Of a stretch of 64,000 nucleotides of DNA, positions 311-4,998 are shown one piece after another. Within the stretch, counting starts at the first letter, position 1. Every line of letters starts with the position of its first letter. A model generated the notes under the pieces. The model did no database searches. It was not told the origin of the DNA and was given only the letters and a program-made list of their open reading frames with translations. The stretch is from a virus: the IMG/VR virus record IMGVR_UViG_3300010883_000017, positions 9,849 to 73,848 of that record; one strand, 5' to 3'. The position numbers and the translations under genes were made by a program.

Positions 311-902
311 GCGCCCTAAGTCAGCGCGCCTGCATAGCTTGTTACAGGAGTTGGATATCAAATCCTGGGACGTGCTCTTAATAGGGGATGGTTCCGGCAG
401 CGGCTGGGATATCGGGGTTGGTTGGTCGTGCGTAGTGATAGATCGATATACGAAGTCTCGGAAGCTAATACACGGCGGCGGTAGTACAGGAACTGTAAAT
501 ATCGCGGAGCTGATGGCCTACGTGCACGCCATGCTTTGGTACTCTACCCACATAGGCCGTGAGCTGCGCAAGCAATACCCTCGCAAGATTCTCAATATTC
601 ATGTAATCACGGATTCCCGTGTTATTGTGACCCAGGGCAAGAAGGTTGCAGAACGGAACACAGAAGGGCTGGCTAACCGCGCGTTGTGGGCATCCATCAG
701 CGATATCGCCCGCCAGGGTTACACATTCCACTGGCATTGGATCGCGCGGCTCACTAATGAATTGAACTGGGCGGCCGATCAGATGGCAGGCTCAGCCAGA
801 AAAGCTGTAAAAAATTGCATGCTTACTGAGGACGTGCCGGATGAGAACGGCAAGTATACGGGGGTGTCGATATACGACATCAACCCACTAATTAAAAAAT
901 GA
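231..902 (+). CDS. ribonuclease HI-like protein
   Basis: Acidic catalytic set in LIGDGS, NIAEL, ITDS and WAADQMA, plus HWHWI; the true start may be further downstream (~297). Confidence 0.75.
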   Translation: MPTRNFSRSTQNSSQKPRKVKRVKKSKRPKSARLHSLLQELDIKSWDVLLIGDGSGSGWDIGVGWSCVVIDRYTKSRKLIHGGGSTGTVNIAELMAYVHAMLWYSTHIGRELRKQYPRKILNIHVITDSRVIVTQGKKVAERNTEGLANRALWASISDIARQGYTFHWHWIARLTNELNWAADQMAGSARKAVKNCMLTEDVPDENGKYTGVSIYDINPLIKK

Positions 903-906
903 CCAA

Positions 907-1020
907 AGGTTAGCGAAGAATAGCAAAGTGAGGTTGCGGCTAGTTATGCGTGGGTGTGAAATTTCGTGCATTGTTTAGCAAGTGCCCCCGTTATGTAGAA
1001 ATATATACCGGGGGATTTTT
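907..1020 (+). ncRNA. pentamer-periodic guide-like RNA unit U1 (15 pentamers + GAAA hairpin 985-1014)
   Basis: aggtt agcga agaat agcaa agtga ggttg cggct agtta tgcgt gggtg tgaaa tttcg tgcat tgttt agcaa; G at position 2 in 14/15; hairpin followed by ATTTTTAATCCAAG. Confidence 0.8.
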
Positions 1021-1026
1021 AATCCA

Positions 1027-1084
1027 AGTGCAGTGAAGAGAGACTAGAAGTGCAAATCCAAGTAACACAAGGCAAAGTAGGACA
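1027..1084 (+). ncRNA. truncated/degenerate pentamer unit U2 (no terminal hairpin)
   Basis: Follows the ATCCAAG linker; agtgc agtga ... agtaa cacaa ggcaa agtag gacaa with one register slip; runs into the next ATG. Confidence 0.45.
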
Positions 1085-1633
1085 ATGAATATCTGCCATG
1101 AGCACGAGTTCATACTATGGGCACACCCGAGAACCGCAGCGCGTTTTGTATATTCTGCGCTGCGGAACCGCGGAAGCATGGGTCCTCTCACGCATCGAAC
1201 CGGTGTTCCGATAGACGGCGCTGGTTACAGTGTTGTTTGCACGGTGCGCAATCCCTATACGCGAATGCTATCTGCGTGGAAGTGGACGAATGCGGTGGGA
1301 AAGCAGCGGTACTCGCCGGAGAGTTTTACGGAGTTTGTAAGAAAGCACACGCCGTTATGGGGGTTACCGCCGATTTCAAAGGACCTGGGCCACAAGTTGA
1401 AGATGGTCAAATACTTTGTGCGCACAGAGTCGATTGAGAAAGACTTACGCGCACTCCCCTGGGTTCCGGACACACATTCGTTCCCCAAGAATACGTACTG
1501 TAGTAATTATAAGGGCTACACTCCGACCGCTTTGTATGACGAAGAAGCACAAGAGAAAGTTCGCCGGTTGTATTGCGGAGATTTTGCAGAGTTCGGATAC
1601 GATCCAGATGTGATTCCCGCAACGTTTTATTAA
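1085..1633 (+). CDS. sulfotransferase family 2 protein
   Basis: HPRTA (5'PSB-like), VRNPYTRMLSAW (3'PB), C-terminal DFAEFGY. Confidence 0.75.
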   Translation: MNICHEHEFILWAHPRTAARFVYSALRNRGSMGPLTHRTGVPIDGAGYSVVCTVRNPYTRMLSAWKWTNAVGKQRYSPESFTEFVRKHTPLWGLPPISKDLGHKLKMVKYFVRTESIEKDLRALPWVPDTHSFPKNTYCSNYKGYTPTALYDEEAQEKVRRLYCGDFAEFGYDPDVIPATFY

Positions 1634-1646
1634 CGAAAGAAGGACA

Positions 1647-1907
1647 ATGAGAGTAACGGAGATTTCTGTAGAAGTAGGCAGAACTGCCACCATTAATTAC
1701 CAGAGCGCGCGCAACTCAGTTGGTCTTACAGCCACCCTAGCGGCTGATGACCACGCGCCTACCGCGATCCGCTCGTTACAAAAGCAAGCCGTAGATATGC
1801 TTCTAGGTGACAACGAACAATTTCGGGACGCCGAAAATGTGACTTCTGTGGATGCGGAGAGCCTAGATGCGGCTATTCGTGCAGGGGCGGAGTCTCGCGA
1901 ACACTGA
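1647..1907 (+). CDS. hypothetical protein
   Basis: ORF with GAAGGA RBS. Confidence 0.6.
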   Translation: MRVTEISVEVGRTATINYQSARNSVGLTATLAADDHAPTAIRSLQKQAVDMLLGDNEQFRDAENVTSVDAESLDAAIRAGAESREH

Positions 1908-1931
1908 TTTACCGTGGGTAACGGGCAAATA

Positions 1932-2960
1932 CTTTGTTATCCATAACAGGATTTTTGATCTAAGTCGTGCCCCGTAGTGTGGAGAGGATCTAAGAGGACT
2001 ACCGCCGACAACAGGAAGTACGGTATGCATCCTTGGCGTGCAGAAATGTGCGCCAGGGGTTTTTTGATCTAAGGCCAGTCTTGAGGAACGAAGTTCGGGA
2101 AAGTCTCGATGAGTTTACTTGTGTACTGCCAATTTTAGTTCGCAATAGTGATGGAAAGCGGTGCGGATTTTAGCGCGGCGTAGTACAGTGCCCCCGCCAT
2201 GTGGAAACGCGTGGCGGGGGATTTTTGATCCAAGGGAAGAGGCGCAAAGGGGTACCAAGTTGAGCTCCGCATACAAACGCTTAGAACTCGGCAGTACAGC
2301 GAGGGATAGCGCTGCGCAGCGATGCGTAGACTAATGTAAGTAAGCATCCCTGTCGTATGGAAACATGCGCCAGGGATTTTTTGATCTAAGAAATAGCAAA
2401 GCAGCGTACGGGCATGATCACTCATAACAAGTCGAGCGCACTCTAGGTGTGTGCGGTATACAAGAGTAACAGCCCCCGTCATGTAGAAATGTGTGACGGG
2501 GGATTTTTGATCTAAGCCGGGTAGGGTAGAGGGATGCTCGGTAAATACCAGCCGGGACAAGTGTGGCCGTCAAGTGCGGGCTCAGTTAAGTTAGCGCTTC
2601 CGTCGTGCAGAAATGTGTGGCGGGGGATTTTTGATCCTAGGAAAGAGCCGTTGTGGCAAGTGGAGAGGAGCCCAGACCAGCATCGTATAGTAGCGCTCGG
2701 TCAAGCTCGGGATACCTTAGCCCGCGTAATCAGAGATGGTTGCGCGGGTATTTTTGGCCCCGTTCGTCTAGTGGACTAGGACACCGGCTTCTCAAGCCGG
2801 GAACAGGAGTTCAATTCTCCTACGGGGTACATTTTGATCCAAGTGGAGTCGATATTACCGGTGTATAGGGGAGGCTAGTCCTGCAACGAGCAGTTCTGCG
2901 TCGCTCAGATAACCAGACTAGTGGGCCCGGGCGTTCGTTACGGGCGCTCGGGCTCATTTA
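1932..2960 (+). repeat. array of seven pentamer-periodic guide-like RNA units (U3 1963, U4 2072, U5 2233, U6 2389, U7 2515, U8 2639, U9 2842) separated by hairpin + ATTTTTGATCYAAG repeats
   Basis: Hairpins at 2031-2058, 2191-2220, 2348-2375, 2473-2502, 2597-2626 and 2721-2748 (GAAA/GAGA loops) and 2922-2956, with compensatory changes and G-U pairs; intervening tracts have 5-nt periodicity. Not a CRISPR array. Confidence 0.88.
2757..2829 (+). tRNA. tRNA-Glu (anticodon CTC), no encoded CCA
   Basis: Acceptor GCCCCGT/ACGGGGT, anticodon arm CCGGC-TTCTCAA-GCCGG, T arm AGGAG-TTCAATT-CTCCT. Confidence 0.92.
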
Positions 2961-2997
2961 TTACGTGGCAAACTGGGTTCAAATAGGGAATGTAAAT

Positions 2998-4041
2998 ATG
3001 AAAAGCAGGAAGAAAAAAGTTAAGCAAAATACAAAGCGAAACGCGCCGAAAACATCAGTTTTGCGCCGCAAGAATACACGTTTAATGAGCAGGACTTCCG
3101 GAGGACGGCAGTCAGTTGTCGAAGCGCGTCTTGATAAAAAGGCCGATACAATTTTGGCCAAAGCAAAAATCATCAAGATAGCTGCGCAACCAACAAAGGT
3201 GTACCGCACTGTGAAAATTGACGATCTCCAGATCGACAACTCTTATCAGCGTCCGCTGAAAGAAGGTCATATTGCTGACATCATGATGTACTTCAATTGG
3301 GAGGGCTTCGGCACACCAGTTATAGGACGCCGTACTGGTGGCGGGCTATGGTTAATTGACGGGCAGCAGCGGATTACCGCAGCGCAGCGCTTGGGTGCTA
3401 CCAGCGTTGGCGCAGAGATCCGCGATTCTGTAGGGCCCAAATATGAAGCAAGTCTGTTTCATTTGTTGAACTCAACGAGCGTCGTCCCGACGAAGATGCA
3501 GATCTTCCGCGCGGCATTGCGCGCGGGTAATAAGAACGCCGTTGCTATCAATAAAGCAGTTAAAGAGGCGGGATTTCAAATCCATTTGAATGCGGTCAAT
3601 TATAGCGGCAGCGAGTGGCCGTATATTCGAGCACTCAGTCGTTTAGAAAAGCTGTTTAAGTACGGCGGCGTACAATTTCTTACGGAGGTGCTCTCGATAA
3701 TTAGTGAGACGTGGCCGGAAGAAGATGACGCAGTTCGCGAGGACGTTATCGGTGGAATGCACCGGTTTATTCGTTTTACTCGGTACAGTGATCCGCGCCC
3801 CAAGGGCTGGTTGCACGAGCTCATGCCCACAAGGGGGATGACGCGCCGCGATCGTATCGTAGAGGCGATTACGCAGAAGGGTCTGACTGCTGCAGGCTTA
3901 CATAACAAAGCTGCGAACAGCAAGGAATCGGCGTCTGGCTACAGCCGCGCCGAAGCTGTGCAGCGTATCTTGGACGAGACGTGCAGGTTTAATAGCCGCC
4001 GTAGAACGCCTAAAAGTACCGCTGCCGACGACATGGTTTAA
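2998..4041 (+). CDS. ParB/Srx-like N-terminal domain protein (DUF6551-like)
   Basis: LQIDNSYQRPL and LIDGQQR motifs; basic N-terminus. Confidence 0.7.
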   Translation: MKSRKKKVKQNTKRNAPKTSVLRRKNTRLMSRTSGGRQSVVEARLDKKADTILAKAKIIKIAAQPTKVYRTVKIDDLQIDNSYQRPLKEGHIADIMMYFNWEGFGTPVIGRRTGGGLWLIDGQQRITAAQRLGATSVGAEIRDSVGPKYEASLFHLLNSTSVVPTKMQIFRAALRAGNKNAVAINKAVKEAGFQIHLNAVNYSGSEWPYIRALSRLEKLFKYGGVQFLTEVLSIISETWPEEDDAVREDVIGGMHRFIRFTRYSDPRPKGWLHELMPTRGMTRRDRIVEAITQKGLTAAGLHNKAANSKESASGYSRAEAVQRILDETCRFNSRRRTPKSTAADDMV

Positions 4042-4096
4042 TACATGCGTATAAGCCCCCACACACACACTTTGCGTGTGTGCGGGGGTTGTTTAC

Positions 4097-4171
4097 TGCT
4101 CTGTGCTGCTGCGCGATACAAAGCGGAGCTGGGTCAAGCGGAGAAATGCCCGGGCCAGCATAGCAGAGTTT
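4097..4171 (+). ncRNA. pentamer-periodic guide-like RNA unit U10, directly upstream of the Cas7-like gene
   Basis: tgctc tgtgc tgctg cgcga tacaa agcgg agctg ggtca agcgg agaaa tgccc gggcc agcat agcag agttt; G at position 2 in 14/15; preceded by a CCCCC..CGGGGG hairpin (4056-4088). Confidence 0.82.
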
Positions 4172-4203
4172 TTGTTTTTGAAATTAAATGGAGGAATTTG
4201 AGT

Positions 4204-4998
4204 ATGCCAACCACAAAAAAGGCCCCTAAAAAGGCCACTAAAAAGAGAGGCGTTAAAGGAAATATGTCTGCGATGTTAGCAGAGATGCCAGACGACGCGC
4301 TTGCTACCATAGAAAAAGAGGGGGGAGACCTTCTCGACCTGGAGCTTATTGAGTTTCACTGGTTGGAGTGTGAAATCATCGGATCAAGTCCTTTGGTTAC
4401 TAATCGGTTCTCTGATGAGTCTTTGGATGCGATCGAGGGTAATCAGACCCAAGGAGCAACTGGTAAGAAGCTTAAGAAGCCCCCGCGACAACCTGAGAAG
4501 GAGTTTATGCAGGCTGCGCATATATGTAAGGGGAAAGCAGATCCTGCGCACCTTGAGAAGAACATCTATGGATTTCCCGCTGTCGCTTTGAAAAAGGCCA
4601 TGGCTAACGGGAACTACAGATACGGAGGCGCGAAGGATAAGGTGTCGCAGATGGGCGCATTTCATGTGCACGGCCCCTGGCACGGGCTGATCGAGGTGCA
4701 GGGGCTTGATGACAAGCCGTGTATCCCCTCGATGGGACGTGATATGGTCCAGCTTCCTAAGGGGCAGATTGCGTCTATCGCGTATAGACCATACTACTTC
4801 CCGTGGAAGATGAGCGTATTTATCCGGTATTGTCCGACCTTGATGTCCAAGGACGAGCTGATTCACGCCCTGTATATCGCAGGCAATTGCATCGGCATTG
4901 GTTCTTGGCGCACGGAAAAGAGCGGGGACAAGGGCTCGTTCGACGTCGGTGATATCAAGTACCACGGAAAAAACTTCCAAGCACCTCTGTGCTCGTAA
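4204..4998 (+). CDS. stand-alone Cas7/RAMP-like RNA-binding protein (Vipr-like candidate effector)
   Basis: GGAGG RBS; EIIGSSPLV strand, YGFPAVALKKA helix, RPYYFPW, and Gly-rich C-terminal loop AGNCIGIGSWRTEKSGDKGSFDV typical of Cas7-group RAMPs. Confidence 0.75.
   Translation: MPTTKKAPKKATKKRGVKGNMSAMLAEMPDDALATIEKEGGDLLDLELIEFHWLECEIIGSSPLVTNRFSDESLDAIEGNQTQGATGKKLKKPPRQPEKEFMQAAHICKGKADPAHLEKNIYGFPAVALKKAMANGNYRYGGAKDKVSQMGAFHVHGPWHGLIEVQGLDDKPCIPSMGRDMVQLPKGQIASIAYRPYYFPWKMSVFIRYCPTLMSKDELIHALYIAGNCIGIGSWRTEKSGDKGSFDVGDIKYHGKNFQAPLCS

Follow-up and report, generated by a model that had tools for sequence, protein, structure and literature searches.

A Vipr-like gene with a pentamer guide array in an uncultured marine phage, and a guide unit predicted to target a GHKL ATPase gene of defence loci

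The pentamer array and its neighbouring genes

The stretch of DNA analysed here (64,000 nucleotides, hereafter the window) belongs to a virus record of 73.8 kb, which is estimated to be 35% complete. It contains an array of units built from tandem five-base repeats, together with a tRNA gene and several protein-coding genes (Table 1). When G residues recurring in phase every five bases were counted, at least 12 of 15 were found almost only at 894-914, 2089-2260, 2596-2661, 2834-2859, and 4074-4119, all of them on the plus strand, and the count on the minus strand never exceeded 11 of 15 in the window. A phase HMM marked four segments only in the 64 kb, namely 907-1077, 1963-2720, 2842-2912, and 4098-4168. 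The consensus over 150 pentamers was Y(69%)-N-N-A(57%)-G(83%), in which positions 4-5 had been seeded by the HMM and positions 1-3 had not; the two free bases (NN) were unbiased.

The units are delimited by the motif T(4-6)[GA]ATCYWAG, eight copies of which are present at 1016-2843 and nowhere else in the window. Most copies are preceded by a shared terminator-like GC hairpin, and U3-U7 have a hairpin of 13-14 bp with a U-run in common. Pentamer tracts are also located in the leaders of two genes (1029-1084 and 4098-4168). A sigma-70-like promoter was not found in 850-4250. Metatranscriptome contigs from two runs cover parts of 3151-4870, which takes in vipr and its leader, and not 1900-3000, and such contigs, coming from standard libraries, cannot show small RNAs.

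Table 1. Array units, RNA elements, and adjacent genes, with positions in the window
Feature	Position	Strand	Basis or remark
U1-U8, other vrRNA units	907-2750	+	Interrupted by ORFs 1085-1633 and 1647-1907
tRNA-Glu(CTC)	2757-2830	+	ARAGORN; Rfam tRNA, 59.1 bits; directly 5' of U9
U-run and GATCCAAG, candidate 5' handle or processing site	2831-2843	+	Conserved before every tract
13 guide pentamers of U9	2844-2908	+	NN at 2845-46 ... 2905-06, corresponding to codon positions 1-2 of GRFGMGLPNASVS
14th pentamer and degenerate linker	2909-2919	+	NN is TA; targets have CA (Gln)
17-bp GC-rich hairpin, then U-rich stretch; putative 3' tail/terminator of U9	2920-2958	+	RNA fold
DUF6551/ParB-like gene between U9 and U10	2965-4041	+	Syntenic only in close relatives
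U10, pentamer tract in the leader of vipr	4098-4168	+	In-phase G scan, HMM, decoding
vipr, RAMP (Cas7-like) protein, 264 aa, presumed partner of U9	4204-4998	+	Match to 36pp_D; fold
Candidate vap, 198 aa	6238-6834	+	Homologues directly 3' of vipr in at least 12 distant loci; phrog_15946

The best PDB sequence match of the vipr ORF was 36pp_D, annotated as 'SUSP1 Vipr protein' (E 3e-4), with an alignment spanning the G-loop. An AF2 model of the protein, built from 15 sequences (pLDDT 73), gave Cmr4, Csm3, and Cas7-11 as top fold matches (E 3.5e-6 and weaker). Homologues were found at 34 loci in viral and metagenome collections, and nearly all of these have pentamer tracts beside the gene.

The VIPR system, reported for the first time in 2026, binds DNA under the guidance of RNA. 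It is composed of Vipr, a minimal RAMP protein, and of vrRNAs that carry 9-16 YNNGG repeats and end in a structured tail; dsDNA is recognised through the NN pairs, and one base is skipped at each repeat (10.64898/2026.04.26.720920). Its natural targets were mostly coding DNA on both strands, the skipped base being the wobble base, and silencing was obtained from either strand (10.64898/2026.04.26.720920). According to the cryo-EM study of the SUSP1 complex, one protomer is bound per repeat, GGY is sequestered, and a gapped R-loop is formed with five RNA bases to three DNA bases (10.64898/2026.04.26.720927). The reference systems are the type II VIPR of Escherichia phage SUSP1 (Vipr, vap1, and vrRNA1-4) and a P. 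fulva prophage system (10.64898/2026.04.26.720920, 10.64898/2026.04.26.720927, 10.64898/2026.10.15.759431).

In SUSP1 Vipr, the first G is read by D177, whereas W178 and R179 bind the second G and the pyrimidine (10.64898/2026.04.26.720927). The G-loop reads GIGSWR here versus GVGDWR in SUSP1; W235 and R236 correspond to the W and R of SUSP1, and S234 takes the place of the D. From these residues we infer that the D to S change fits a scaffold in which the second base is G and the first base is mostly A.

The present system resembles that of SUSP1 in being phage-borne, in having a small stand-alone RAMP protein, and in its 9-16 or more pentamers of three scaffold bases and two free bases, as well as in the one-base skip at the wobble position, the predicted coding-DNA targets on either strand, and the lack of a self-target; a structured 3' tail is probably a further common feature. 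It differs in the scaffold, which is A-G-Y (Y-NN-A-G) instead of G-G-Y, and in the predicted tail, apparently a plain hairpin with a U-run instead of a pseudoknot. Unlike in SUSP1, a tRNA gene lies inside the array before U9, and the predicted target is an ATPase of defence loci rather than a satellite or prophage regulator.

Scaffold variants such as YNNNG have been accepted in the VIPR papers. A genomic language model has also been reported to recover 21 clusters of non-canonical VIPR arrays, with WGT/NN, TGH/NN, GAC/NN, and other patterns, for which the accessible portion of that report gives no targets (10.64898/2026.10.21.760802). These arrays share with ours the five-base period, a scaffold other than GGY, and an adjoining protein of Vipr-like fold. 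The Vipr model also has the RAMP fold in common with Cas7/Csm3/Cmr4 of class 1 CRISPR, where one protomer is likewise bound per guide repeat and a thumb breaks the duplex. However, class 1 CRISPR has a period of six with five paired bases, contiguous spacers, and Cas1/Cas2 adaptation, whereas two of five guide bases would be read against two of three target bases here, and no cas genes are present.

For the candidate vap, no PDB sequence match and no significant fold match were obtained, and Atlas gave unnamed viral clusters only. This 198-aa gene is nevertheless a likelier accessory gene than the DUF6551/ParB-like gene; synteny of the latter is confined to close relatives, so it is probably not the conserved vap.

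Unit U9 and its matches in bacterial and archaeal genomes

The tRNA-Glu gene holds the slot before U9 (2842-2921) that the GC hairpin holds before other units, and in repeat family D3 the segment 2821-2849 aligns to the 3' arm of that hairpin, the T-run, and the GATCYAAG of the other units. The element between the tRNA gene and the pentamers (2832-2843) reads TTTTGATCCAAG. It is followed at 2844-2913 by 14 tandem Y-NN-A-G pentamers on the plus strand, most of which end with G, often as AG; the scaffold G is present in 11 of the 14, being absent from pentamers 2 and 3 and lost at the 14th. Two degenerate pentamers come after the 14th, and then the 17-bp GC hairpin and its U-rich stretch, whose sequence is unlike the hairpin common to U3-U7. 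The RNA fold of 2836-2965 has a predicted energy of -51.6 kcal/mol (z = -2.95). An Rfam search of 800-3100 returned the tRNA as the sole match, and so did a comparison with a phage genome collection.

The NN pairs of U9, which are bases 2-3 of each pentamer (2845-46, 2850-51 ... 2910-11), reproduce exactly the dinucleotide string read in the first-pass annotation, though at a period of five rather than three. As a period-3 gapped pattern, the string had 0 matches in the 64-kb window even with three mismatches, and no self-target was found in the 73.8-kb contig, where the best site matched 6 of 14 NN. When the NN are taken as codon positions 1-2 in the sense orientation, U9 decodes to G-R-[F/L]-G-[I/M]-G-L-P-[K/N]-A-S-V-S-[Y/stop]. 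Other units of the array also decode to protein motifs: U8 and U10 are antisense to a C5-methyltransferase motif (GGPPCQ / GGFPCQPFS), U4 is antisense to VTANPPFS (the NPPF methyltransferase motif), and U1 spells an integrase motif. Relative to the coding strands, U9 is sense and four other units of the array are antisense; for U4, U8, and U10, this difference from U9 had been proposed previously and was confirmed by the decoding.

The first 11 NN at period 3 were searched in 596 Gb of bacterial and archaeal DNA (one genome per species), and 46 matches were found, against a chance expectation of 2 x 596e9 / 4^22 = 0.07 for equiprobable bases; the reversed U9 pattern, used as a control, had no match in 818 genomes. 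At all 46 sites, the guide has the sequence of the coding strand, its NN correspond to codon positions 1-2, and the frame is the same. The peptide GRFG(M/I)GLPNAS(I/V/L)S is encoded at every site, with Q as the next residue of the targets; the complete genes specify proteins of about 530-690 aa, and the wobble bases vary freely. The first-pass annotation had read the GxxGxG motif of a GHKL ATPase from U9 and looked to a genome search for GHKL hits, and these were indeed recovered, the 46 of 46 in-frame matches agreeing with the domain assignment and structural alignment given in the next section.

The best matches, with 13 of 14 NN (93%), were those of a Bryobacterales MAG (L004) and an Elusimicrobiota MAG (L041), which are not obviously marine hosts. 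At least 12 of 14 NN (at least 86%) agree in 39 of the 46 loci, and the match strings stop after NN 13; no match to all 14 was present in the genomes searched. Natural targets of VIPR guides have been defined by an NN match of at least 80%, a level which these 39 loci exceed, all in frame. With 13 NN and up to three mismatches, the site was found in three further genomes of a set of 400 from one class and in none of 400 from one phylum; the U9 target gene is sporadic.

The remaining units of the array have no match in the 46 GHKL loci, and the patterns of U8 and U10 have none within three mismatches in five GHKL-bearing genomes; no candidate host emerged from these comparisons. Among viral contigs, the 11-NN pattern gave 0 matches and the 9-NN pattern gave three, one of which is a chance match in a 48-aa ORF. 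When the guides of the 34 other Vipr loci were compared with the GHKL/Ssp loci, none matched except that of locus L069.

L069 is a short metagenome contig with a Vipr fragment 60% identical to the one described here, and the first unit after its vipr gene opens with GATCCAAG. The NN of this unit spell G-R-F-G-M-G-L-P-N-A-S-V-S-Q in the same sense orientation as U9. Three NN differ between the two guides, from CG to AG (both Arg), from TC to AG (both Ser), and from TA to CA, the last giving the Gln of the targets. The two units are identical at 24 of 28 NN bases but at only 17 of 42 scaffold bases (Fisher p = 2e-4), and their tails are unrelated. A GHKL gene with AGR for the Arg in question exists in contig L087, where the L069 guide matches 12 of 14 NN. 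Counterparts of other array units were not found in the sampled loci. The conservation of the NN through synonymous switches of codon family indicates that selection acts on the peptide-level meaning of the code, and it is hard to explain unless the GHKL motif is the target.

The matched gene and its surroundings

Five of the U9 targets match Pfam HATPase_c_3 (PF13589), with E values of about 4e-23 to 4e-17. In an alignment of the L004 protein with the ATPase of human MORC4 (7k7t), DNGEGM is placed over DDGCGM and IGRFGMGLPNAS over IGVFGNGFKSGS; the latter corresponds to the GxxGxG (G2) box, which follows the DxGxG box and closes the ATP lid. As judged from these matches, the target gene encodes a MORC-like GHKL ATPase of the HATPase_c_3 family. 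Identity with MzaB was rejected, since only the N-terminal ATPase domain agrees (50-79 bits against a cutoff of 850); resemblance to MzaB or MutL is confined to that domain.

Clustering of the ORFs around the 46 loci revealed a recurrent operon, which comprises genes for a protein of about 1130 aa, a protein of about 280 aa, a helicase of about 550 aa, the GHKL protein, and a protein of about 305 aa. The helicase is of the ResIII/DEAD type and the last gene product is PLD-like, and the two genes flank the GHKL gene. With PADLOC models, the protein of about 1130 aa was identified as SspC (E 0) and that of about 280 aa as SspD (E 1e-133), with SspB (E 3e-103) upstream. Within 8-kb windows of the 46 loci, the helicase was present in 37, PLD in 28, and SspD in 21, while in four loci the GHKL gene is accompanied by a gene for a DruA-like protein instead. 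Cultured carriers of the operon include Nitrococcus mobilis (L012) and Sinirhodobacter populi (L006). The suggestion made earlier that such ATPases often belong to restriction or defence loci is therefore borne out for these targets by the accompanying SspB/SspC/SspD, ResIII helicase, PLD, and DruA genes.

The sspBCD genes are those of DNA phosphorothioation. In Vibrio, the SspFGH proteins encoded beside sspBCD are SspF with a Walker A motif, SspG, and SspH with an FtsK-like C-terminus (PMC8092258). The label SspFGH was rejected for the loci found here, whose module combines the GHKL ATPase with a ResIII helicase and a PLD nuclease. By its gene content, this trio is an uncharacterised companion of sspBCD and a putative restriction module. 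The module is also carried by two IMG/VR contigs classed as viral, L089 (SspC-SspD-helicase-GHKL-PLD) and L087 (helicase-GHKL-PLD), a class in which contigs can take in host flanks.

Proposed action of U9 and alternative explanations

We consider it probable (about 85%) that U9 is a vrRNA of a VIPR system in an uncultured marine phage and that it silences the GHKL gene of a defence module. The analysis itself established the five-base periodicity of the units, the relation of the encoded protein to Vipr, the family of in-frame targets with its defence context, and the NN conservation in L069; filament formation, dsDNA binding, and silencing by U9-Vipr are proposed by analogy with SUSP1. U9 would be read from the plus strand, with its 5' end after tRNA-Glu and the GAUCCAAG element, and would consist of 13-14 Y-NN-A-G pentamers followed by its own hairpin tail. 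According to the homology with SUSP1, one Vipr protomer would bind each pentamer, hiding A-G-Y and exposing NN. The NN may then pair with the template strand of dsDNA, two bases on and one skipped, so that codon positions 1-2 would be read by the guide and the wobble base disregarded. The first 13 NN of U9 spell GRFGMGLPNASVS, the GxxGxG (G2/ATP-lid) box of the MORC-like GHKL ATPase.

The U9 site is located about 107 codons, or about 320 bp, into the target gene (4869 to 5190 in L004) and in the middle of the operon. A protein-RNA filament that locks about 320 bp into the GHKL coding region would be expected to stop transcription of the GHKL gene and of the downstream PLD nuclease gene. We infer that the purpose is to disarm the defence module of a host or of a rival element. 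Silencing would leave defence proteins that have already been made in place, which counts against a clear benefit to a lytic phage.

An alternative, which we regard as a real though somewhat doubtful possibility, retains the same molecule and mechanism and takes the true target to be a rival mobile element (prophage, satellite, or island) carrying the Ssp-helicase-GHKL-PLD genes, rather than host chromosomal immunity. Published VIPR targets are satellites and prophages, and the system has been presented as one with which phages, satellites, and prophages fight each other. The viral-classed contigs L089 and L087 carry the module, U1 of the array spells an integrase motif, and the target is distributed patchily, as mobile defence islands typically are. 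However, most matches are in megabase chromosomes or large contigs, no mobile-element marker was present in the 8-kb windows, and the viral-classed IMG/VR contigs may hold host flanks. This alternative differs from the best explanation ecologically and not mechanistically.

That U9 instead acts on RNA, by pairing with the transcript of the GHKL locus and blocking or destabilising it, appears very improbable. With ssRNA in vitro, the SUSP1 VIPR does form a guide-RNA duplex, but the filament mostly stalls and completion is poor (10.64898/2026.04.26.720927); silencing, moreover, has been described from either DNA strand. The four other units of the array are antisense to coding strands, as an action on mRNA would demand, whereas U9 and its L069 counterpart have the opposite polarity. 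The tracts, the T-run hairpins, and the scaffold G are all on the plus strand, so that the U9 RNA is sense and cannot pair with the GHKL mRNA. The orientation argument for DNA over mRNA that was put forward in the first-pass annotation is thus sound, and the L069 guide has the same polarity. Taken together, the sense guide, its antisense siblings, and the published dsDNA binding and silencing support dsDNA as the target of the U9 complex, in which the template strand would be paired.

It is still less credible that U9 is decayed or idle, as part of a terminator region after the tRNA, and that the GHKL reading is a coincidence. Two scaffold positions without G, a tail unlike the shared hairpin, and the mismatched last NN could point to decay; against this stand the 46 in-frame matches where 0.07 were expected, the reversed control with 0, and the independent L069 locus, which keeps the NN code through synonymous codon-family switches.

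The least probable of these explanations takes the tracts as sponges or leaders to which a TRAP-like ring protein would bind at xAG, with NN as spacers; TRAP does bind (G/U)AG triplets with 2-nt spacers, and the tracts have this spacing and sit in two gene leaders (1029-1084 and 4098-4168), but the explanation was rejected, as the NN carry information, in the form of protein motifs in four units and genome matches, and the neighbouring gene encodes a Vipr-related RAMP, which is not TRAP-like.

A VIPR guide against the GHKL gene thus remains the preferred explanation of U9. The kind of system is already published, and methyltransferase, restriction-modification, phosphorothioate, and anti-defence were not found as targets in the VIPR papers searched; a defence-gene target is the point absent from the literature searched. 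What is distinctive here, as far as can be read from the sequence, is the AGY scaffold and the G-loop change that matches it, the presence of a tRNA before U9, and the predicted defence-locus target. If U9 works like the SUSP1 guides, the gapped code would silence a whole family of immune genes despite synonymous drift, and a phage may aim RNA guidance at an immune gene of its host or of a rival element. The result also draws attention to the helicase-GHKL-PLD trio linked with sspBCD as a putative restriction module worth targeting by a phage.

More generally, and with a likelihood that we place a little below even, phages may use VIPR as a broad-spectrum RNA-guided counter-defence, with guides directed against invariant catalytic motifs (the GHKL G2 box and the PCQ and NPPF motifs of methyltransferases). 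One guide could then cover a gene family across phyla because the wobble base is skipped, and guide variants would track the CGN/AGR codons for Arg and TCN/AGY codons for Ser of different hosts. A phage-carried RNA-guided system with guides to a host-protecting element is already known from Vibrio phage ICP1, whose CRISPR-Cas is aimed at PLE, a host anti-phage island, and cuts DNA with contiguous spacers to that one island. Unlike the ICP1 spacers, the gapped guide described here appears to be written against an invariant protein motif and fits a gene family across phyla. The DNA of U9 itself was found unchanged in independent seawater and marine metagenomes from several studies.

The gene downstream of vipr and the Vipr G-loop

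A 198-aa protein, phrog_15946, is encoded downstream of the Cas7-like RAMP gene vipr, and it is likely an accessory (vap) protein of this VIPR family, because its gene has homologues directly 3' of vipr in no fewer than 12 loci that are distant from this one. A PDB fold search with the AF2 model of this protein (pLDDT 83) returned no significant match. The G-loop of Vipr, in the region of residue 234, reads GIGSWR, whereas that of the reference phage SUSP1 reads GVGDWR; residue 234 is Ser here as well as in most homologues, while its SUSP1 counterpart is Asp, the residue by which SUSP1 Vipr recognises the first G of the scaffold. The change from Asp to Ser would be in step with the A-G-Y scaffold of the guide units.

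Features in and around the guide array (window coordinates)
Feature	Position	Remark
U2, pentamer tract	1029-1084	leader of ORF 1085-1633
Sulfotransferase-like ORF	1085-1633	Pfam Sulfotransfer_2, E 5e-4, below cutoff
86-aa ORF	1647-1907	syntenic in L052
U3, U5, U6, U7	1965-2027, 2235-2344, 2391-2470, 2517-2594
tRNA-Glu(CTC)	2757-2830 (with T-run/GATCCAAG element to 2843)	precedes U9
vipr	4204-4995
Candidate vap gene, 198 aa	6238-6834	synteny with vipr

Guide units, embedded ORFs and the predicted U9 target

The tRNA-Glu(CTC) preceding the guide unit U9 stands where a shared hairpin precedes the T-run/GATCCAAG element elsewhere, so tRNA 3' processing could release the 5' end of U9, which is comparable to reported VIPR arrays with interspersed ribozymes. 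Both ORFs inside the array keep their synteny in L052, a close relative, and no family assignment was found for the 86-aa one. The proximity of a sulfur-transfer-like enzyme to a guide that matches a phosphorothioate defence locus could be mere coincidence. In four genomes (L007, L011, L022, and L026), a GHKL ATPase of the family predicted as the U9 target is not set in the Ssp-helicase-PLD operon; there, the next gene encodes a DruA-like DUF4338 protein (PADLOC DruA, E 2e-155). U3, U5, U6, and U7 spelled no recognisable peptide when read in both orientations. The distant Vipr locus L067 carries pentamer-periodic tracts at 1193-1804 (0.6 kb) and 2426-3602 (1.2 kb), which greatly exceed the array in the window in length.

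Metatranscriptome contigs

Contigs from two seawater metatranscriptome runs, which may include DNA carry-over, span portions of 3151-4870, with partial coverage of vipr, of the U10 leader, and of the DUF6551 gene. Two metatranscriptome contigs differ at 4059-4060 by two bases (CA) in the length of the (CA)n run in the hairpin upstream of U10.
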